Source of the DNA: Podarcis liolepis
Taxonomy: Eukaryota
Assembly: GCA_965112155.1 (NCBI GenBank)
Contig: OZ218099.1
Direction: 5' to 3' (one strand)
DNA length: 64,000 nucleotides
Shown here: piece by piece, positions 3,130-55,375 of the stretch
Numbering within the stretch: position 1 is the first letter of the stretch
Layout of the letters: each line of letters opens with the position of its first letter
The notes under the pieces: generated by a model
Databases searched by the model: none
What the model saw: only the letters and a program-made list of their open reading frames with translations
What the model was told of the DNA's origin: nothing
Program-made: the position numbers and the translations under genes

Positions 3130-5140
3130 TACTACAAAATTCATAAAATTCCAAGCATTCAGCAACCAATCCATTAATGATTATAGCTCTTTGTGTGATA
3201 TTTGTGCACATTTGGGAACGAAGTATCCTGTTAAGAAGAAGTCATTTGAAGAGGCTAGGTGCTTAGGAGTTGCTAATGTTCAAGATCCATGACAACTGAG
3301 TAAAACTATTCTCTGAATTTAGTAGTCAAGCATCTTGCATTCCAGACACTCTTCACAATCTGCTGAAGGGATTCCAGTAGTCAGGATGAAAACACAAGAC
3401 AAAATAAAGTCAAATATAAATTGTTTCTGTTGCTTTTGGACAGGTTTGTCTGGAAACGGGGCCAGCGTCTGATTTTATTCCAACATCCAAGCAATGAAGA
3501 GAACCTTTACACTCGGCAAACAAAAAACTCAAATGCGACTTTGGCATTCTTTTTTCGTATCCTGTTACACTGTGAGCATGTGTTGTGTTGGCTTCTGTGG
3601 ACAAAGCAGATAGGGCAGATTTTTAAATTGGAACTTTCTGCAAGCGCCAAAGGCATATTTTTGTCAACGATAACTTTTAAAAATAGTGCTGTAGGGTCTG
3701 TTTATACTGAGCGTATGTTTTTCTCCTACAAAAATCTGCTGCTTAAAAAATGCAATTCTGTTATCAGAATCAGCCAGCTGCTTACCACAGAAACAAGGCA
3801 AAGTTATGAGAAGGACCCATTGTCTAACTTTCTCTTATCTCCAGGGCTGCAAACAAGGTTGTGTGCCTATTTCAATTTGAAGACAGTTAAGGAGACAGTT
3901 TCCTGCCCCCTTGGTAGAATCAGCCATTGCTGGGATCTAAATATCACACAACCCTGCCAGAAGCCTCTGCCACCCCAGTTTTATGGCTGAAATCATCTGT
4001 GAAATCCACTTCCTTCCTAGACACATTGGAAGTTTCCAATACTTGCAAACAGAGAGGTTGCACTTAAGAGACATTTCCCACATTTTTCTTTACCAAAGTT
4101 CTGAGCATTTCTACATGGAAGATGTCCCTGCTAAAAAGTGAGACAAAAGGAAAACAGCTTTTCAGATGGTGCAAGACAGCAGAGTAGAGGGATGCCCTGT
4201 TATGTTGTTGGATCCATGTTTTAATCAAACCAGCCTGATTCACATCCCCATGATTCACCCATAACCAGAAGACAGCTACCCTTTGGTTTCTGCACTACTC
4301 TAAATTTTGCAACATAGTTCTTTGCTTTAAAAAGATGCAAAGGGTGGCATTCAAGTAAGTTTCATAGAGTAGACGCATTGAAATTAATGAACATGACTAA
4401 GTTTGTTCCATTGATTTCAGTGGGTCCACCTGAAGAAAACGTAGTGGAATACCACCCCAAGTAATTCAGGTCTATGGTGGTTGACTTGATTTGGACCAGA
4501 CAACCTTGATCATCTGTTTCAGATGTTGCAATATGATACCTGACAGAATCATTATAGAGCTTTCCATTTTCTCTTGCACTTCCTCTGTGCATGCACACTC
4601 TCTGGGAATATGATACTGGTAACGTTAAGATAAGCTGGACAGCATGATTACAGTAGCTATAGGGAATTAACATAGCTTTCATAGGAGGATTCAGAAACCA
4701 GTTGTGATCCATTCAAAACAAATTATCTTGTCTCAGTTCAAGAGTGCCAACCAGGAACTCCATGTGGTACAAGGCAGTGGGAGACAATTTCATTAATACA
4801 TATTAATTCTGCAAAGCTCTTAAAGACTTGTTTCTTTGTTCTAATGCTGGGCTGTTTATTTTTAAGGCTTATTGTTGCAGCAGGGTTACTTTGAAACAAT
4901 GCCATTGGCTCCTAGGGGTATCCTTATTCAAGTTCACTCAAGTAGGATGTAATGAGAAACATTTTATGTCTTTCCTATTACAAAATAGATCTCTTTTCTC
5001 GTTAAGAAGCTGGCGCTCAAATGATTAAGACTACTTAATCCCACCTAGAATAGAAACTGCACCACCCCAAAACGTCTGCTTTAAATGACAGAACAAAAGG
5101 CAGAACAGAATGTGGCAGCCTTGAACTCAAAGACTTAGAA

Positions 5141-5273
5141 CATGGGCCGACAACATGGCAGCCGTCAGATGTTGTTAGGTCACAACTTCCATCAGCCCAG
5201 CCAACATGGCCAGATGTCAACGATGGTGGGAGTTGTAGCCCAACATCTGGAGGGCACCAAACTGGTTATCCCT
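5141..5273. mobile_element. Degenerate palindromic hAT MITE (same family as 5777-5912)
   Basis: Has the CAGATGTTG...CAACTTCCATCA ... TGGGAGTTGTAG..AACATCTG inverted core and ends CCCTG. Confidence 0.65.
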
Positions 5274-5558
5274 GTTTAGAACTCAGGGTGGGATGGGGGA
5301 ATCATAGTTCAGTCCATTCATGTTTGGTGGGTGGGTGGCATTTGACAACACATTTTCTCTCTCAAATCTTTATTGCATTGAAAATAATGCCACCCAGCAG
5401 GCGCCAAGATCTTTCTCTTAAAGAAGGCGGCTGAAGGAAGGAATCCATTGAGGAAAGAGATTGTGGTGGCGGTGAAAACTACAACACGTTAAAAAAACCA
5501 AAATACTCACCTTGGATATTTAAGATTAAAGTGCAAAACAATAACAAAAGCTCAATAA

Positions 5559-5711
5559 TTCCTTCTAGTAGCACCTTAGAGACCACAAGTGTGCATGCAC
5601 AGGGAAGCTCATACCAATAACAAACTTAGTTGGTCTCTAAGGTGCTACTGGAAGGAATTTTTTTATTTTGTTTCGACTATAGCAGACCAACACGGCTACC
5701 TACCTGTAACT
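5559..5711. mobile_element. Penelope-like retroelement terminal remnant with inverted duplication
   Basis: Inverted arms TTCCTTCTAGTAGCACCTTAGAGACCA / TGGTCTCTAAGGTGCTACTGGAAGGAA surround GTGTGCATGCAC. Flanked by a 13-bp direct repeat with 1 mismatch: AAAAGCTCAATAA (5546-5558) and AAAAGCGCAATAA (5712-5724). Penelope assignment is from recall of the squamate motif. Confidence 0.65.
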
Positions 5712-5776
5712 AAAAGCGCAATAAGAACATGTGTGTGCATGTAAAAAAGAATTAAAGCGATGCTATCAGTATAGAT

Positions 5777-5912
5777 CAGGCTTCCTCAAACTTGGCCTTT
5801 CAGATGTTTTGAGACTACAATTCCCAGCACCCCTGACCACTGGCCCTGCTAGCTAGGGGTCATGGGAGTTGTAGGCCAAAAACATCTGGAGGGCCGAGTT
5901 TGAAGAAGCCTG
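5777..5912. mobile_element. hAT (Charlie/URR1-like) palindromic MITE
   Basis: TIRs CAGGCTTCCTCAAACT...AGTTTGAAGAAGCCTG. Exact 8-bp TSD GTATAGAT (5769-5776, 5913-5920). Confidence 0.92.
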
Positions 5913-6602
5913 GTATAGATCACCCAACCTATGAAACACAGAATGACTTGTGCCTTTGTCATGCATACCTAGCACAAAGGCCTGCCTCACTGTCTATATC
6001 ACCAAAGTACTTCCATGTTACAGAACCAGTAAGCAGACTAGATAAAGAGTTGCTGCTGAGGATTGATCACATGGTCCGAAACGAGTGACAGGCGGTGCCC
6101 TGCTTGCCAACTACACACCCAAGAGGCAGCATAGGGATGGTTTTAAAGCAAATATTCCAGCCTGCCATTTCCCGTAAGAAGGTTAGAAATCTCAACTGTG
6201 AGTAGAGTTGCTGACACGGCGAGCTTGAGCCTCCTGCTTTATGCGCTTACAAGTCGATGTGCAGAAGCAATGACGGTTGTGTGATCAAATCCACTCTTTT
6301 CAAAAACAGAACGACTTCCCCATTGACGGGGGAAATGGAAAGGTTCCATTGCAGAAGTTCAAGCCTTATAACAAAAAATCAGAACCCGATTCTCTCAAGA
6401 AGATCTGCTAGCAAGGGATTCCACCGGCTGGTTTGCAATGGCAGGCAGGGCTGCCTACCCATGAATGCATACCCCAATAGTGTCATTCAAGTGGCACACT
6501 GTGTCCAGACATTATCCGAACTTTTAGGGGGGAAGTGCACACCTCTTTAACTATGTATGGCTTCTCATCATGCTGGCTACACGTGATTGCTAGGATCAGA
6601 AG

Positions 6603-7104
6603 CATAGCTGTCAACTTACAGATTTGAAAATAAGGGACCAGCAGCCTCGAAAATACGGGATCAGCAGCCAAATTAAGGGATTTTCTGGGCACAGGTATGT
6701 TCAACTTCTCAGCGCCTCCAATCCAAAGGCAGAAAGCCCAGCCAGCAGCCAAACGAAGCCTCAAGTGGTGGTTCCCACATCGCAGCAACCCGGCAAAGGG
6801 GATGCAGCAAGGAAAACCACCATCACAAAGGCGAGTCCCCAGGCAACACGGCCAATTTGATCGGCACAAGGCATGCAAGCTCCACCCCCAGTCGTTCTTA
6901 GACTCCTTATTGGGTGAGCAACGCAGCCAAGCAACACAGTTGGAGCCTCCCTTCTCCCTGGTCGGCAGGGAGGGAGAGAGAGAGAGGAGCTGCTTCCTTT
7001 GAAACCCGGGAAATTTAAGGGACATCGTCAATAAGGGACAGCAGCGGGACACAGCGCTAGGATAAGGGACTTTCCCACCAAATAAGGGACAGTTGACAGC
7101 TATG
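6603..7104. mobile_element. Non-autonomous hAT-like DNA transposon
   Basis: 14-bp perfect TIR CATAGCTGTCAACT / AGTTGACAGCTATG and repeated subterminal TAAGGGAC motifs. 8-bp TSD ATCAGAAG (6595-6602 and 7110-7117), with 5 extra nt on the right. Explains the ORFs at 6483-7217. Confidence 0.85.
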
Positions 7105-7117
7105 ATATGATCAGAAG

Positions 7118-7212
7118 TTGGCATCTGGTCAGCCACTATGGGATAGAGGCTGTTGAACTGGATAGGCCTTTGGTGTGTTCCAGCGGGACGTTTCTTATGT
7201 TCTAATGTTCTT
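7118..7212 (+). mobile_element. 3' end of a CR1-type LINE or derived SINE
   Basis: GCATCTGGTCAGCCACT...GGCCTTTGGTGTGTTCCAGC...TTCTTATGTTCTAATGTTCTT, an octamer-repeat tail. A related copy lies at 43765-43882. Confidence 0.55.
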
Positions 7213-7724
7213 CCCACCCTTATAAGTGATTCTGTCCAAGGTGTGGTTTGGATTTCGCCAGCTTTTTCTGGAATATATCCAGAGGGGAAACAGCCAGTGC
7301 AGACACACCCTAAAGGAAGCTGGCATTCCCTGATGGGAAGGGCCTAGGAAGGACAAGGCATGACAACAGGAGCGTGATCGCTGAAGAGGGATTTGGAAAT
7401 TCAAGAAGGGAAAAAAGAAAACACAAATGGAAAATTTAAGACAAAGTGGCAAGTGGCCAAGAAAGAATCAGACAAAACATTTCTGAAAAAGAACAAGGTT
7501 GCATGGAAGAAAAATGTCTGTTGTTCTAATCATCATAGGGACTGTAACACCATATGCAACAGGAAATTGAACCATGGCACTCAACTGTCTTATTTTCCCT
7601 TTGATTTTAAATGTTCTGTGGAACCATCCTTAGACCACAGATTATTATTTTTGAACAGGAAGAAGAATTGAGACATTGTATTGAGGAATCAGCCCCTCTT
7701 TTTACAATGTACTGTGAGATTAAA

Positions 7725-7979
7725 AGCCAGTGTGGTGTAGTGGTTAAGAGCGGTAGTCACGTAATCTGGGGAACCGGGTTCGCGTCTCCGCTCCTCCACA
7801 TGCAGCTGCTGGGTGACCTTGGGCCAGTCACACTTCTGTGAAGTCTCTCAGCCCCACTCACCTCACAGAGTGTTTGTTGTGGGGGAGGAAGGGAAAGGAG
7901 AATGTTAGCCGCTTTGAGACTCCTGAAGGGGAGTGAAAGGCGGGATATCAAATCCAAACTCTTCTTCTTCTTCTTCTTC
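7725..7979 (+). mobile_element. Squam3-like tRNA-derived SINE, full length
   Basis: A box (TGGTGTAGTGG) and B box (GGTTCGCGTCT) in the tRNA-like head, with a (CTT)n tail. Close copies lie at 58896 and 61421. Confidence 0.9.
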
Positions 7980-9904
7980 AATTGGGGAGGGGTCCCTTTA
8001 AGCATTACCCTGGACGTGTAGGAGCAACATTTCCTAAAAGGCTAGTGACATTTAAATGGTCCAACCATGTGGGCCAATTTGCATTGATGACAATTACTAA
8101 ACAGGACCCATGGAAGGGGACTGATTCAGTGGAAAGAGCTATAGCAATCAGCTACGACTCGTGCAGTTGGGTCATTTAAATGTTACCCCGGCCATGTAGA
8201 AGCCACTCATGGAAAAGTGGCGTGCGTATGCCTATGGTAATGTATAAGTTCCTCTCAGAGATCTACAGCCAAACCAAATTCTAATGAAAAAATGCACATT
8301 CTGTGTTATCAACAGGCTTTCTTCTATTTACCAGGAAACAAGGAATAGAGGAGAAATTTGTTTGAAAGAATGAGGAAATGCCATTTTATGTGCACAGCAA
8401 GACCCCCTACCACTCAAACATCCTGAATTCTGTGATTGCGAATGCTCCAAATGAATACCAACATTAGTTCTTTGCTCCTAATATAAGAAAAATTCACAAA
8501 ATATACTCAGTGAAGTTGTACCTGCTTTCCCATAGGTACAGGAATGTTACTTTATATAGGTTCCTTAAGAGTAGATGAATTTAAAGGACAAACATATTTC
8601 TGCGGTAGCTCAGGCACAATATTCCTTTCCTCTACAGCAATCCAACGGAACACATTTTGTTTAACAGAAGGAAAGCATACCAACGTATGGTCAGAGCTTA
8701 ATTATCTAAGCATTTACACAATTTTAATGAATAGCTCCAGCAATTTTGCACATAAATATCTGACCCTAGGGTTGTTGTAATTTATAGAGTTTCCACTTAT
8801 GGAAAGTATTCTAGCATTTTCTGCATGACCTCTATATACTGCTTCTGAACTTCAACTGGGTGTTCCCTTTGTTGCTAGTTCATCCGTTTTCACTTTTTCC
8901 ATTTTCTTGAAATATGCTCACTGTATCTGGAACTGGCCCTCCAAAATGATCTAAGGAGGCTGAAATCCTAAAGATTCTTCCTAGGAAAATACGTTTTATG
9001 AAACTCAGTGAGACCTCTGAATGAACAGGTAGAGATTTTCATTTATTTCACAAGTACAACTCATTGTTAAAACCGTGCTAATGGAAGACAATCTTACTCG
9101 GCTATGCCAAAGAAGAAGAAGATTCTATTAGAAGTCAAGAACTTTACAAAAAAAAAAGAGACCCCAAATTAAGCAATGTTCAGCCCAACTAATTTCTATA
9201 GAAGACTTTAAGTGTATGCTTAAATATTCACCATTCTATATTAGTGGGAGATTTCAGCAACTGAAATAAGAGCTCGGTCAAATTTTGAGGGGTTTTGTCT
9301 TCCGTGTTAGAATTTTCATGTTCTGTGTGAGAGAGCTTTTCCTGAATGGCTAAGCAAATGGCACAAACATCAAAAGAATTTTTCCGTTGTTCCCCTGAGT
9401 CCTGGACACCAACTACAGCTCAGATACAACTGTGCCAAAGCCCCTACTGTTTAAATTAACAGTAATTAAATTTAACAGTAATTAAATTTAAATTAAATTA
9501 ATGTTTAAATTAACCATGCGGCCCCATGCTGGGCTACGGGGCAACACGCAAAGAAGCTCACAGGCTTTGAGTGCAAGGGAACTATGCAATGTTTCAGTTT
9601 TCTGGCAAAGTTTGGGAAAACTCCTAGATCCAACTAAGCGAAGCCTTAGGCAAGCTCTTTACAGACTCTCTGTAAGCCCTCTTCCTTGGCCTATTTGGTT
9701 GGCAATGACCCCACTCCCCAGACCTCCTACAGTCAAATGGGTGGCACAAGTTTAGAGAGAGAACATTAAAGGATTCTGTATACCTTATTTTGTCAGAGAT
9801 AATTCCTAAGCATGATGAGACCTCAGGAACTGAACGGCTCCCTGGCTGCAAATTCTTTCCTTAACTGTGTCTTGTGGGACCACTCTGTTCCAATTTTTTT
9901 TTGC

Positions 9905-30520: not shown

Positions 30521-31551
30521 AAGGTTTGCAAACAATAACCCAAAAACCAACAAGATTGTGTGTTCAATTGGAGGGATAAGGATGTATATCTTTGTTGATA
30601 TTTTAGCCAAAACCACTCAAAAAATTGTTAATGATATTACTATAGATCAAAAGATACAAACTTCTTCGTTAGATTCTAATTATAATTTTCTTCTTAATGA
30701 TGGAATAAACATGATATGTGTATTGGTAACATTTTTCAGGCTGGTATCATTGTTAAATGATGTCTATAAACTCTAATTCTAGCTTATAGACATACTCAAC
30801 ATTATGGGTGATATCCAACATTAGCCATAGAGTAGACCCACTGAAATCAATGGACAAGTTATCTGACTATAGATTTCAATGGGTTTGCTCTGAGTATGAC
30901 TAATTTCGGAGATCAGTCTATATAGTATGTGAACCTGACCCAACAGGGTTTATCTGGAATAAGCAAATGAAAGAAAATATTACAAATATTATTCATGTAG
31001 TCAATGAGGTTAGCAGTTGCAAATAATTTCATTTAGTGTTTCTTATTACCCAAAAAGCTTTTGATAATACTGAGTAGCTCTTTCTTTTTAAAGTACTAGA
31101 CATATTAATGTTGATATGAACTAAAAAAAAAAAATGATTCAGAGTGTTTACATGAGGTATCAACCAAACAATTGCTTTAATTTTATATGGTCAAAGGATG
31201 ACATTTCATCCCACTTTCACAATGGAAATCTTGCACAACAAATCTTCCTGTTTCTCATTACTGCCTGCAGCTTCCCTCCTCATGTGCTCCCAAAATCTGC
31301 TTTAGATGGTACCTAAAGCCTTCAGAGCATATTTAGGAAGTACATAAGAGGCTGCAGGGGAAACTCTGTGTCAACACACAGAGAAAGAGACAACACTTCT
31401 ACAATCTTTAAGAGATTATTTTCACTTCAGAATTTTTTGCCGCTTCAGAATTATTTCATGTTCTGTTTTAACCAGAAAAAGTTAGCAAGTGCTAGCAATG
31501 AAGTAGACCACTGGTGCTCTTTCATTATTAATACTTTTAAATATCGTTAGA

Positions 31552-32149
31552 TGTCATGGACTGGTTGGACGCAGAGGAATGGTGAGAGGAACCAGCTGGG
31601 GAACCACCAAGGGAAGAATACTCAGAGCCTGGGTAGTGGTGGTAGGACAATGATGAATGGTCAGAGGGAGAAGGCGGAGAAGACTGGCAAGAGGCAGTGT
31701 GGGAAGCTGAAGAGGTAACAGGACTCAATCAGCTGGGAGAGGCAAAGAATCAGAGGCAGAAGCTGGAGCTGGAGCAGGAGGGTGGGAGGAGAGAGGCCAA
31801 GAGGCAGAGATGAGTCAGGCTGGTGAACAATCATGGATGTCTCCCCCTCCTGCTGCAATAAGCTCCCCTCTCTCCTTGCCTCCCAGAACCAGAAGAGGCA
31901 TGAAGAGGGCAGATGAGAGGTTGGTTGCATGTAGGCGCAATCTCCAATTGCTTGGGAAAAGCACTGGAGAGGAAGCGACATAGATGGCTGTGCGGAGGTG
32001 GGGACTTTCAGTTTCAGCAACTGTTCCATGGGGCTCAAGACCTATCATTAGGCCTGACAGTCCACCAAGTATGCGCAGATTGTGTTTTTGCTAATAAAGA
32101 GTTAATTCCAACTTCAACGCTGTGATTTATTGCCAGTTTCCTCCCGACA
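31552..32149 (+). mobile_element. Solo LTR (Gypsy-type), 598 bp, with a decayed internal ORF
   Basis: TGTCA...CGACA termini, 5-bp TSD TTAGA/TTATA (1 mismatch), AATAAA at 32093. Homologous to 2022-2575. Confidence 0.8.
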
Positions 32150-33974
32150 TTATATGACCTGCCTTGATAGACAGGTAAAACCAGCCTCATCCAAATATTG
32201 TTGTAAAATAGAATGGTTCGTCAAGCTGAATTTGATGTAGAACCTTTGCTATTGTTTCGCAGTTCTAAACATATTTAATGATTCACATATATGAATGATA
32301 ATGCTTCAGTGCCTTATATTGCACTATATTTTCCTGCATTACTTACTACATTTTACCTTCTGGATTCTATATTTAAAAAAGTATATAGTTGCACACACAA
32401 CCACTTTAAAATATTAGTTTTCCCCCATATAGTGTTTTCTCCATGCAGCATCCAAAAAAGGAGGAAAAAAATATTTTACTGAACAATCTCTCTATATAGG
32501 ATGAATGAGGTTAAAAAAGAAAACCCAACGTTTAGTAAATTATTTAGGATGCTTGCTTAGAATATTTGTACAATGTATTTCTGTGTGATAGGGTTTTTCC
32601 AAAAGATTCGGCCTATTATACATTCTGTCCCACTCCACTTCAAAGAACTCTCATTGAAGAAAAAGATCATTATCCTTTCCAATAAAACTTCTGCTAAACA
32701 AGTAATTTTCAATTTAGGAGCAGGTGACACTAAGATATCTCCCAAGGGCAGTGTATTTAGTCTTTATACATAACCAAACAAAACAGTTACGATGAAAGCC
32801 GGATGTTCTTCAGCCCTTGGATATAATGAAAACGTCAGCATTGTATGCAGTTTTGGAACTAGCAGTTTTACTAGAACCATTTAACATTTATCATCACCTT
32901 CTACAAGTGAGTTCTCAGCAACAAGAAAAGTTACATAAAGCAAACCATTCCTTCCTTTACTGTGCCTTCATGAGGAGGCAGATCTGTTTTTAATTCATTT
33001 GCATCTCTTTTTTTGGTGAAAACCGCCTGTATAATGAATTTTCTTGCTGTATGAAGGAAATGAAGACAAAAGACTGCAGAGAAGCTCTTGCTGTGTGGTA
33101 GCTTTGTCTGCTCATGGTTATTTGTCCTGCTTTTCCCATTTCTTCCCTCTCACTTTCCTCCTTTTGCCATAGTCTCATAGTTTCTTTTCCCCACTCCTGT
33201 CAAGTGAATGCTCTCTTGTTCCGTTCCCATTGCTCCTCCATCTTATGTGTCATATTGTCCCCATACCTCCATAGACCTGTTCAGTAAGTCATTGAGGGTG
33301 CAAATGGATTTCTGGATTGGGACTGTGTCCCCTGGCTCTACTCTCAAGCTCTAGGATTGTGAAAGAGCAGACTTACAGTATTCAAGGCTCCAACACATGT
33401 AGGTTCCCCTTGCATGACCCCTGCACAGTAAAAATGGAAGCTGCAAATCACACAAATAATTACAAATATCAGCCTCTAAGTGAGGACGGGAGAACGTCAT
33501 CATGGAACTCCTTTCCACTTCAATCACTTTGAAGGGAAAATGACTCAGTGCTGAATCTGATTCTGTGCTGAATTTGATGGCGCAATTGATTTAGGTCTGT
33601 TGGAGGTCTAAGGAGCAGCATAAAATTACACCTTGTGGAATCAGTTTCAGTTGTTGCAGCCTCAGGATATAGGCAGGATGCTTGCAGTGATGGGGCCAAC
33701 AATATGTCCTCTTCATCCCTGCCCATTATGGCTGATAAAATATAGTAGGAGGGGATTGATTGGATGGGTCTAGGGAGTTCCTCGCTTCAGGAGGAGTTTT
33801 GCCCTATGCCTTGAAAGAGGTGGGGGTACAGCCTCTCTTGAAATGGTTTTCTCTATATGCGGAGGTTTTCGAAAACTACCATACAGACTCTAATATTCAT
33901 TTCCTGGGCAATGTGATCAAATGGGTTATGACCAACTAGCTGTAAAAAAGTGGTGTGGGTGGGTGGTTCCCATG

Positions 33975-50766: not shown

Positions 50767-52299
50767 TAAGAGAAACAAGAAAAGAGGCCTGAAGCAATAG
50801 TTTCTCCTTCTCATGGTGACATGACCCAAGGACCATGCACTGCCCAGTGGAAGACTCAGAGGAGGGTAAGGCTCCAGCTTCATCCTGAGTGGAAGAACTG
50901 CCAGGACTTTTTTCAGGAGCCCCTCAGCCACAGGACACAGCTTTGCCAACTGCTCTGATTTAGAGAAGTCTCTCAAACTGCCCCAGTCTCCCCAGTCTTG
51001 CAGAAGGCAAAAACTGCAAAATAAGAGAAGGGCACTTTAAGAGCTAGCAGGCTCTTCTGGGGAGGCGGGGTTTTCTACACTACAGGTCTACTTAACTGTA
51101 TGTTAGGCTACAGATGTAGCTTGGTGCATGCTGAGCAGTTTCAGTAGGACTCTGGGAGCTCTCCAAGGTCCTGCACAATCCTGCTGTAGTCTTGAATTTT
51201 TGGCTTGGCCTCTTGCTGAGACACTGAAGGGGCTCACCTGTGAGCCCCGCGCTCTTGCAGAACGCACAGGACGTTACCACATGACACACTGCAGCTGCTG
51301 AAATGCCCTGTTTCTGCAGCTGTTAAAAGTGGAAGAGCCTGTCCTCATCACTAATGTGACTAGCATTAGTCAATATGACTAAAAAGGCAACATACTCATT
51401 TTATTCTCTAAAATAAGTAGCATTTTATTCTTCCAATCGTATTTTTATTTCATCTCTGCAGGAAATGTGACAGCTAATTGCTAATATTTCATTAAAAAAC
51501 ACATACAAAAAAAGTTTTTAAAAATCTAGAAATCTAGAAATTTTTCTTTTAATAAACATTTCATGCATTTCTTCAAAAACAGCAACAGCCAGCCCTCCCC
51601 GTACCACTGTTTTTTAAAAAAACAAACCTTTGCTCTTAATTTTCAGTATTATGTTATGGTCCTATTATACCCTGTGTATAGTTCCAAGGAGTACCATTTT
51701 TTGTTTCCTAGTGTACATATTCCTAGTGTACATAATCACATTTTCTTGGCAATATATGATTAAATAATTTTCAGTCAACTATGGCTACAAGTGTGCTGCC
51801 TGCGCTAACATTCTTCTTGCTTGAGTACTTTGGTGACAGCTTCTCTTAAGGCTCCTTACCTTTGTCTGAAATTTATGGTCATTTATCCACCAGTGGAATT
51901 TTTAATATGGCCCTGTCTGTTCAGTGGTTGTGTGTTAAATGCCAATAAACTGGCTAGAAAAGAGCTGAGAGACTAATTGCCTTTTATCTACAGTGTGATG
52001 ATAATCAGATGCGGGTGGGAGGAAAGACTCCTGCAGATTTAACAAGCCTAACTGACTACCATTTTAACATACTTTGTCTGTATGTATTTACTAATAAGCT
52101 AAAACTTTCAGAATGCTTTATTTTCCACACCATGCTGTTCAGATTTAAAATCTATGTTTTGCTTGCTTTGATGGAACTGGTGGTCTATCAGGTAATCACT
52201 TCTTACACAGGTCTAGCTTTCAGCTGTACACAGCCTGAAACTAATGTGTCTGGAAATGTGAAACACTTACCAGGTATTCAGCTTCCTACCAGGTATACC

Positions 52300-52719
52300 T
52301 AGTGATGTATAGAAGTGAGAGCTGGACCATAAAGAAGGCTGATTGCCAAAGAACTGATGCTTTTGAATTATGGTGCTGGAGGAGACTCTTGAGAGTCCCA
52401 TGGACTGCAAGAAGATCAAACCTCTCCATTCTTAAGGAAATCAGCCCTGAGTGCTCACTGGAAGGACAGATCGTGACGCTGAGGCTCCAATACTTTGGCC
52501 ACCTCATGAGAAGAGAAGACTCCCTGGAAAAGACCCTGATGTTGGGAAAGATTGAGGGCACAAGGAGAAGGGGACGACAGAGGACAAGGTGGTTGGACAG
52601 TGTTCTTGAAGCTACAAACATAAGTTTGACCAAACTATGGGAGGCAGTGGAAGACAGGAGTGCCTGGCGTGCTCTGGTCCATGGGGTCACGAAGAGTCAG
52701 ACACGACTAAACAACAACA
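52300..52719 (+). mobile_element. 5'-truncated BovB (RTE clade) LINE encoding the ORF C-terminus
   Basis: ESWTIKKAD...AFELWCWRRLLRVPWTARRSN...LEKTLMLGKIEG.RRRGRQR.RWLD is the BovB signature. (CAA)n tail and an exact 12-bp TSD ACCAGGTATACC (52288-52299, 52720-52731). Confidence 0.96.
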
Positions 52720-55375
52720 ACCAGGTATACCAGCCCCAGCCTCCAGAATTATTTGGTGTGTTTGTGTCATGGGCAGGCTGCTCTTAGAAGGCCTGTGAGT
52801 GTGTGACTATAGGGAGGAGACTGGGGGCTGTATGCCAGGAATACAAGTGGTGGTGAACAGTTAAGGCACCAGCCGGGTGGGCACTGCTGGGTTACATGAG
52901 CTGCTGGCGCTGCATCTGAACTATTCTCTTTGTTACAAACCTGGGCAGAAAGACCCTGATTTCCTATGTACATATATTTAGCAGCTGAAATGAACCAATA
53001 ACTTGCAGGGATGACCAAAAAGAAAAGAAAACGATGACAACACCAGCTCACCTACTCAATGCCCTAAAGTTCATTTCCATTTTTATAGTGGATGCTATTT
53101 CAAAATGCAAATGCTTGTGCACTTCTTGAAATAAGGTCAGAAATGCTCCTTAACTTATGCCAATTGGTTTCCTTCCATTGACAATATGCACAGTACCCAC
53201 ATTTCTGGCATCCTACATTAAAACAACACTTGATATGACTTCTAAGAATTCTCAAACTAGTATCAGCCACTAGAAGGCCTAGTGGTAGGAGAGTGATGGG
53301 ACTGCCCCTTGAGTTTTGTTATTTATTGGCATTTGGTTCCTGATTGAACTTCATTCCCTGGGATAAACATCCTACCTGTGTGTACGGTTGTAACTTGGGC
53401 AAAAGGTGTGAATCAAGACAAGTGCGTGATGAATAAAGCATGTTCATTAAAAGTGGGTTGGTTTTTTTAAATGCAACCACTTGCATCCTGAGAACCACAA
53501 GCAAAAGGAAGCTCATGGAAGGGGACTTTCCTCTCTACCCTGCTTGTGCAACAGGCCTCTGACCAACCTAGGTGATTCTCACTCCTCCCCTCCAGTGCCC
53601 CATCTCATGCTGCTCCAGAATATTCACCCCTAACTTTGGCACATTCATTCTCCACTTGTCAACAGGATGCAGTTGCTGTAGCACTGCTGTAGAAGCCCAG
53701 TGCTGCAGAGGATTTTTGCACTAGGGTCAGAGGATTATGAGGAATAGAAGAGTTGCTCGGGGACTTTACTGCAGTGTCTCAAAGACCATGGAAGCAACTT
53801 TGTTCAGCTAACATCAGCATACAGCTCTATTAGCAATAAGGTGTGATGAATGAGTTTAGGGAGTTCATGCAAGCAAACCTCTCTAAACAAGAACAGAACT
53901 AAAAGTGTTGTAATGGCAACCTGTAATTCAGATAGATATGTTACTCTGTTTGTATGCTGAGCACAGTGTGTATTCAGAAATCCAAAAGAATTGCTGCAGA
54001 AAGGAATATTGTTAGTGCCACAGTTTCTGAAAGGAGCAAAAGCTGTATCACATTGCAGCAAAATTTAAAAGCTGAAGGTCAAACTAAACATCATGTGTCC
54101 TTCATAAGATGCTTCATGCATCAGAGATTGCACACTCAAACACTTGATTCCATTGGTTTCTGCATTTGCCTATTTTGTAATTTCATAATTTGTTCCAGAT
54201 TTAGGTGTGTGTGTGTTTCTCATGTTGACGGAACATTGTTCTACAACTGGAGTGATGAAATGTCGGTTTGGATGAATACATATTGAAAAGTAAGATAAAA
54301 TTAAAACAAAACCGAAAGCTTAGGCTAGGCTACAGCAGTCTGGGTGGTAACAAACTTGAAGAACTCCAGTTTCCTTATCTGGTCATGTGAAAGATTTGGG
54401 TCATGTTTGAGCTAAAAATATGCCAATTAGCTGTGCCACCATTTTAAAAACAAAAGCACCTATTGGAAATTTCTCCTTCCCACCCCTGTTTCCCCTGTCC
54501 AAGTATTTTATGGTACTAGGGTATACTTATCAAATATGGATTTTTATTACAAGATTTCCAGACAAGTAGGGGGAAATAGGGAGCTAATGTAGGATAAATG
54601 ACTTCAACCACAGTTCAAAGGCACTAGCATTGGTACTGATTTAATAGCATGTTTCTTTATGGACTTGCTCTGAAGTTCATTAAAGTAATTTCAGTGACAT
54701 AGTTCAGCATTTAAAAGATAACCTGAGTAATTCATTTCCAAAAAAAGTCAAAAATTACTTTGAAGCTTTTAAAGAAGATATGAGGGGTGTGAACAGGCCC
54801 CACGATTTACCATGTATCTGTATCTGTGCATTCTTTAAAATTCCAGTCTATTTCTATGTTCTCTTTTCTTTGGTCTGTGTTTCAGGTTCCAAGACACTCT
54901 GTATAAAATGAAGTGTTTCCCCATTCACTATAATGGGGAACCTAAAAATTTCCTCCTCTTTTGGCCAAAGTAGATGAATTTAAGGGAGCCCCTCTGGAGT
55001 AGAGTAAGCTTTCTGAACTACAAGTGAACAGGTCCAGGGGCATTTTGTGAAGGAAGTAACAGGGATTCCCTTTACTTCATAATACCTTATGAAGAGAGTG
55101 GGGGGTTGTTTCTATAATAAAAGGTGGCCAAGTGTTGTGTACTCTTGTTCATACCTTTTTAAAAAAAATTGCAGCTTCACCATGTCCTATCTGTCTGGCA
55201 GTTTTTGTGTGCCCTCATACAGACCTTATATGTATTCCATAGGCCTTGTGATGTGACGCTGTCTAGAATACTGTGTGCAGAATTCTGAAGACCTCTGGAA
55301 TTATTGTTGTTGTTGTTGTTGTTAAAGCAACATGGAATTATTGAAGCAACATAGGGCATCAAACCTCAAGCCCTT

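Follow-up and report, generated by a model that had tools for sequence, protein, structure and literature searches.

HIV nef and MMTV sag are accessory genes encoded in the U3 part of the LTR, expressed only from the 3' LTR and equipped with their own start codons. In plants, it is the Pol frame that extends into the 3' LTR in CRM group A, the elements with a CR motif. This segment is known to steer integration in plant centromeric chromoviruses, and work on CRM elements treats the equivalent of the tail described below as the integrase C-terminus (PMC3059260). The Tf1/sushi group has been described as having LTRs with TGT..ACA ends and an AATAAA near the LTR end (PMC3601003), and as self-priming without a tRNA (PMC6317226). 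The HMGN/Dsup motif RRSARLSA binds the acidic patch of the nucleosome through an arginine anchor (PMC11741339). A literature search found no account of a U3-encoded, acidic-then-basic Pol tail of 100-220 residues in vertebrate elements; repeat-database reports and older papers may mention the overlap.

The 64,000-nucleotide stretch of Podarcis liolepis DNA analyzed here (contig OZ218099.1, "the window"), which spans C2:82088001-82152000 of the genome, contains a solo LTR with a decayed reading frame. We consider it likely, at roughly 70%, that this frame is the LTR-encoded C-terminal tail of the integrase at the end of the parent element's Pol, which would have tethered the integration complex to nucleosomes. 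As in plant CRM group A, Pol extends into the 3' LTR in four lizard families, here called B, C, D and E, while the family in the window, family A, is known from LTRs alone. In plant CRM, the CR motif replaces the chromodomain and priming is by tRNA-Met, whereas the lizard sister families keep the chromodomain, apparently self-prime and add a long acidic stretch. Because they keep the chromodomain and self-prime, they resemble CRM in layout but are not members. With the vertebrate V-clade of the Tf1/sushi group (Sushi-ichi, Amn-ichi) the lizard families share the LTR ends, the AATAAA, the chromodomain integrase (SH3 plus chromodomain in families C, D and E) and self-priming, as seen in the sister families. 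They have coding sequence inside U3 in common with nef and sag, but these are separate genes, whereas the lizard frame is continuous with Pol in four families.

The comparison with HMGN, which the initial annotation had drawn from the window copy, was a fair lead. The family D tail ends in RRSARLKA, at the place that matches the basic motif of family A, and shares seven of eight letters with RRSARLSA; the R-x-S-L-x-L of family A is a looser match, and the tails of families B, C and E terminate in basic clusters that lack the exact RRSARL motif. This is a short motif in an unrelated protein. No homology to HMGN is claimed; by its motif, the tail is a candidate nucleosome binder.

The solo LTR and its reading frame

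The features of the locus, all on the plus strand, are the following.

31547..31551, plus strand: 5' target-site duplication TTAGA; 5-bp duplications are typical of family A
31552..32149, plus strand: solo LTR from family A, an old Gypsy-type family that is extinct, assigned by its termini, duplication and copy family
31553..31983, plus strand: remains of a reading frame of about 140 codons (LTR frame 2, with three stops and one frame break), probably coding for the C-terminal tail of Pol/integrase within the LTR
31553..31830, plus strand: acidic, Trp-rich part, predicted to be disordered (composition of stop-free copies, fold prediction)
31880..31956, plus strand: stretch that passes from Ser/Pro to basic residues (PRTRR ... 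R-x-S-L-x-L), predicted to form a single helix and, by inferred function, a candidate chromatin anchor
32011..32021, plus strand: candidate transcript start and self-primer site, placed by family D geometry and the fold-back junction in L415
32093..32098, plus strand: polyadenylation signal (AATAAA) at a distance of 57 nt from the end of the LTR
32150..32154, plus strand: 3' target-site duplication TTATA, read in the flank

The element is 598 bp long, has TG..CA termini (TGTCATGG at the start, CGACA at the end) and is flanked by a 5-bp duplication with one mismatch. These ends, the duplication and thousands of candidate copies bear out the initial annotation of a solo LTR. A DNA search of the genome gave 4,331 candidates, with 73-81% identity in the best scored ones, and protein searches gave 4,830 to 9,353, with identity of at most 76% apart from duplicates. 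The family is dispersed and multicopy, with matches along nearly all large contigs and a polyadenylation signal close to the 3' end; the distance from AATAAA to LTR end is 57 nt in the window copy as against 72-75 nt in families B and C. We fetched 83 loci that cover most of the LTR and removed 16 duplicates, leaving 67 independent copies with a mean pairwise distance of 0.23. Duplications of 5 bp with 0-1 mismatch flank 17 of 37 clean-ended copies, and duplications of 4 or 6 bp none of them. Family A is an old, extinct family of solo LTRs.

Contigs from two DNA runs with other organism labels span the left junction of the insertion, which is therefore common to relatives. In the 6-12% covered of each of two RNA runs with a related label, depth on the unique flanks of the window copy was zero; the reads on the LTR match it only in part and therefore derive from other copies. 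The flanks are AT-rich, and no host gene was identified in them. Elsewhere in the window, positions 52245-52787 hold a fragment of the end of a LINE reverse transcriptase, presumably of RTE/Bov-B type, judging by its motif. Tandem segmental duplications at C7:93.5-94.6 Mb and C7:78.8-79.8 Mb hold about 18 copies of one family A insertion and about eight of one family E Pol-LTR junction.

The window copy reads as initially annotated, with an ATG at 31556, the translated segments, three internal stops, one frame break near 31747, a terminal TAG at 31981 and AATAAA at 32093. The frame is open from LTR base 2, and the ATG (LTR base 5) is its second codon; family A reads V-M-D-W-L-D-A-E-E-W-W at the start of the LTR. 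Counting as shared any codon that is a stop in at least 35% of the 67 copies, we found that frame 2 runs for 143 codons before its first shared stop at core nt 431, so the continuous frame of about 140 residues that had been proposed does hold across copies. This stop is the TAG of the window copy and is present in 82% of copies. The other two plus frames have seven and four shared stops upstream of it, and the 26 copies from the DNA search alone show the same pattern. Each copy carries on average 1.66 stops in frame 2, against 7.12 and 4.69 in the other plus frames, and four of 67 (e.g. L067) have neither stops nor frame breaks in their present sequence. Of 2,010 dinucleotide shuffles, 0.4% were stop-free in the given frame, 1% in any plus frame and 12% in any of six; one minus-strand frame of the family is likewise nearly without shared stops. 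The median p-value for codon periodicity is 0.0015 within the ORF versus 0.61 downstream. Indels common to at least four copies are multiples of three in five of five cases in the ORF versus none of seven downstream (p 0.0013), and private indels in 40 of 133. The reading frame in the family A LTR is beyond chance.

The ATG at LTR base 5 is retained in 45 of 64 copies. Pairwise dN/dS within the family is 0.57-0.66 in frame as against 0.63-0.89 in the other frames, and net divergence between two marker groups is about zero. The dN/dS comparison that had been proposed as a check is uninformative either way in family A, because neutral decay after one burst gives flat values; it was informative in sister family B (see below).

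The predicted protein has two parts, as initially annotated. The first 95 residues of stop-free copies consist to 26-38% of D/E and to 5-8% of W, and 22 stop-free natural stretches align well. Fold prediction gives disorder apart from a single helix at residues 110-131, which covers the basic part and is followed by R-x-S-L-x-L, with CpG-type variation at the Arg positions. On this point the initial annotation is supported: a squamate LTR-retrotransposon lineage coded for an acidic segment with a basic motif in U3. The segment does not belong to a described protein family as far as Pfam goes, where no family covers the frame, and a search of the Atlas gave no usable match. In protein databases, the frame returned one short unnamed match and two Zootoca gene models; 17 representatives are nearly all short lizard-type fragments, and a fibronectin-repeat protein among the matches is a chance match.

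At four loci (L192, L193 and L199 at C4:104.8-106.1 Mb, and L472), a family A LTR lies in frame with a ZSCAN exon, 17 codons inside the intron that follows this exon, and the automated models P0003-P0005 (Zootoca vivipara, Podarcis lilfordi) read from the ZSCAN exon into the LTR frame. We reject exaptation in this cluster for now: with a pN/pS of 0.95, the pair L192 and L193 shows no sign of selection.

Pol tails in related chromovirus families

A family with a similar acidic-then-basic layout appeared by chance in L145, after which 20 young Gypsy elements were fetched. In those with TGTCAGGG LTRs, Pol passes the polypurine tract and continues in frame 2 of the 3' LTR without a prior stop, for 102 codons in family C (L229-L231) and for 208-218 in family B (L232-L235). 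More than 1,000 open codons lie upstream of the tail in seven full-length elements of these two families; the remainder of the 20 are broken or belong to families without such a tail. According to Pfam, the family C Pol (L231) consists of RT, RNase H, integrase, SH3_Tf2-1 and Chromo (residues 1111-1159), then the tail. In family B, the SH3 is found, and the divergent chromodomain has no Pfam match. The 24 distinct tails of family B have a mean dS of 0.70, a mean dN of 0.21 and a dN/dS of about 0.3, by which measure the tail is under purifying selection. In two family B elements (L233, L234), the tail upstream of the LTR holds SEPSYWWDD, which resembles SEP..WWWDD inside the family A LTR, as if the LTR boundary had moved along the tail.

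Family D, which is young and abundant in this genome, was found in a search with the family C Pol end, via P0028, a protein that ends in G-V-M-A-W-D, an acidic and Pro-rich stretch and AERRRELVAPRRSARL. In all six elements fetched, the LTR starts with TGTGATGG and reads V-M-A-W-D, acidic then Pro-rich, and Pol, whose integrase carries both SH3 and chromodomain, terminates within the 3' LTR (in L338 after 117 codons). Because Pol terminates there, the ATG at base 5 in family D codes for a residue inside Pol. The corresponding codon is AGG (Arg) in families B, C and E. Tails in intact elements of families B, C and D thus measure 102-218 codons and are acidic, then basic. Between family D tails, pN/pS ranges from 0.18 to 0.84 over ten pairs with few changes, and the elements have a 5-bp duplication where their ends are clean. 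The LTRs of L337-L342 are 99.6-100% identical; gag and pol lie in one frame (1,564 codons) in some copies and in two in others, and no AATAAA was seen in the LTR, where long pyrimidine-rich repeats follow the transcript start.

A closer relative of family A came from a polypurine-tract pattern that found L471, a decayed integrase-SH3-chromodomain end with 51% identity to the family C Pol, followed by an LTR that starts with TGTCAGGGACTGG. This family E is present both as solo LTRs and as Pol-joined copies. L474 and L475 have an LTR that reads V-R-D-W-S-E-E-E-W-W in the frame of the chromodomain; in L473, the same LTR reading joins the chromodomain only past a frame break inside the chromodomain. 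All six family E copies tested against family A beat their own shuffles (z 2.6-4.4), as did family D (z 2.5), whereas families B and C did not rise above shuffles. A DNA profile of family A matches family E copies colinearly with E-values of 0.006-0.01 (2.2 for the best codon shuffle) and matches nothing in families B, C and D. In hhalign, A versus E and A versus D reached probabilities of 2.8% and 3.4%, with E-values of 0.016 and 0.013. The family A profile found no B or C tail, and none of the 120 Pol matches was significant. The apparent homology of family A to family E is weak but consistent across these sequence comparisons.

Tails after the chromodomain are mostly short in the 120 related Pol proteins listed (median 10 residues), so a long tail is not universal in the group. 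Among three frog Pol proteins, the chromodomain is followed by G-V-M in two, and RRS-x-R is present in two. The tail of a Podarcis muralis Pol matches this genome at 99%. A further chromovirus family has an acidic tail ending in RRESRRRVSVKELLCW (P0024, P0025; L043, L067:8466-8822, L116-L118), and its LTR-like fragments are found close to several family A loci.

Self-priming and the search for the parent

In families B, C and D, the primer site can pair over 10-11 bases with a site in the LTR, which lies 39 bases after the stop of the tail in family D and within its last 7-11 codons in families B and C. On the strength of this complementarity, the three families evidently self-prime, as in the Tf1/sushi group. 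Because the site lies near or after the stop, the coding sequence of the tail belongs to U3 and precedes the transcript start, and is translatable only from the 3' LTR of the genomic RNA. By analogy, the candidate transcript start of the window copy, 30 nt after the stop, would place its whole ORF in U3. The family A primer site, guessed beforehand from family D, was seen at one junction among 16 pattern matches. At this locus (L415, C7:49044854-49047871), bases 1-470 of a family A LTR run exactly into an inverted R-U5, which begins with the terminal TGACA and folds back. Such a junction would be expected of a self-primed strong-stop fold-back, and the locus has the look of a reverse-transcription product gone astray.

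A full-length parent with paired LTRs, as the initial annotation had expected, did not turn up for family A: no gag or pol lies beside its LTR among the best matches of searches with polypurine-tract and primer-site patterns and of flank comparisons. This is weak evidence, because it concerns best matches only and a pattern of 16-20 bases survives in few copies of this age. Several candidates were rejected. L067 and L068 are a segmental duplication rather than paired LTRs, the cluster at C7 93.5-94.6 Mb is one duplicated solo insertion, and the pattern matches next to family A LTRs are solos or chance matches. Young elements from an integrase-family search are mostly env-bearing retroviruses without such an LTR frame (8 of 20 with both LTRs in view), and the RNase H matches L222-L226 have other LTRs, with Pol stopping before the LTR in L225. 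Many intact env-bearing endogenous retroviruses are present at L202-L220, some with identical LTR pairs.

A probable integrase tail and its alternatives

The ORF is most likely an integrase tail, because Pol continues into the LTR in this same register in four Gypsy chromovirus families, one of which, family E, weakly resembles family A. It is quite probable, from this comparison, that family A's own Pol was read into its LTR in the same way.

The initial annotation had proposed a separate small regulator, a chromatin-tethered activator translated from the ATG at LTR base 5 by way of splicing, re-initiation or an internal promoter. The retention of this ATG in 45 of 64 family A copies and its presence in intact family D speak for such a protein, as do an acidic, Trp-rich composition that is typical of activation domains and the absence of a family A parent displaying the Pol fusion; with the ATG present in both families, a second start inside the Pol frame is conceivable. 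Yet families B, C and E, whose register is the same, preserve the frame with AGG in place of this codon; in family D the ATG is internal to Pol; and the open frame of family A already begins at base 2, with the ATG lying within the conserved LTR terminus. We therefore regard a separate accessory protein as unlikely. Gypsy polyproteins are processed by their own protease, and the tail is long, predicted to be disordered and modular, so that it could have been made within Pol, cut off and used alone as a small nuclear factor, or both routes could coexist. The treatment of the equivalent CRM segment as part of the integrase, in the work cited above (PMC3059260), argues against this, and we consider it a distinctly improbable variant.

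The two remaining explanations question the coding function itself. Family A could have been non-autonomous, its ORF a vestige of an ancestral Pol tail that was not needed during spread; no internal region was seen among several hundred loci, and the copies show no codon-position signal. The latter, however, is explained by star-like decay, with net between-group divergence of about zero, and the many-copy indels kept the frame in all five cases in the ORF and in none of seven downstream, which makes a non-autonomous family very improbable. That purine-rich promoter sequence left a frame open as a side effect might be suggested by the nearly stop-free minus-strand frame and by the 12% of shuffles that are open in some of six frames. 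But only 0.4% are open in the given frame, periodicity occurs only within the ORF, shared indels preserve the frame, and the register is that of Pol tails under purifying selection; this reading is largely refuted.

The integrase-tail reading suggests a model for the life of family A. The parent was likely a self-priming Gypsy chromovirus of the Tf1/sushi type, with a Pol that would comprise integrase core, SH3, chromodomain, a disordered acidic stretch and a basic helix closing with an R-x-S-x-R-L-type motif. The last ~140 residues would be reached through the polypurine tract into the 3' LTR. Because the genomic RNA would end in U3-R of that LTR, U3 could double as coding sequence. Reverse transcription would then place U3 at both ends, and LTR-LTR recombination would yield solo LTRs, and therefore thousands of untranslated, promoter-upstream tail fragments that decay neutrally. 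Since HMGN/Dsup motifs bind the acidic patch and family D has RRSARLKA, the most likely role of the basic end would be to tether the integration complex to nucleosomes. Whether the basic motif would bind the H2A/H2B acidic patch, with the acidic part handling histones or shielding the basic part, is a more detailed proposal to which we give somewhat less than even odds.

More tentatively still, vertebrate self-priming chromoviruses may carry a second, LTR-encoded targeting module on their integrase, a disordered acidic arm with an HMGN-like arginine anchor that would hold the acidic patch of the nucleosome, beside the chromodomain. Such a module would have arisen independently of the plant CR motif and be rapidly replaced between families, and the thousands of solo LTRs coding for acidic domains that it left behind would be raw material on which host genes could draw. 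As for the copy in the window, it is a dead fragment. The reading of Pol into the LTR, under purifying selection in lizard families with a chromodomain, is a candidate for how vertebrate Gypsy integrases engage chromatin, and an LTR-encoded tail would explain why thousands of squamate solo LTRs look protein-coding and enter automated gene models.
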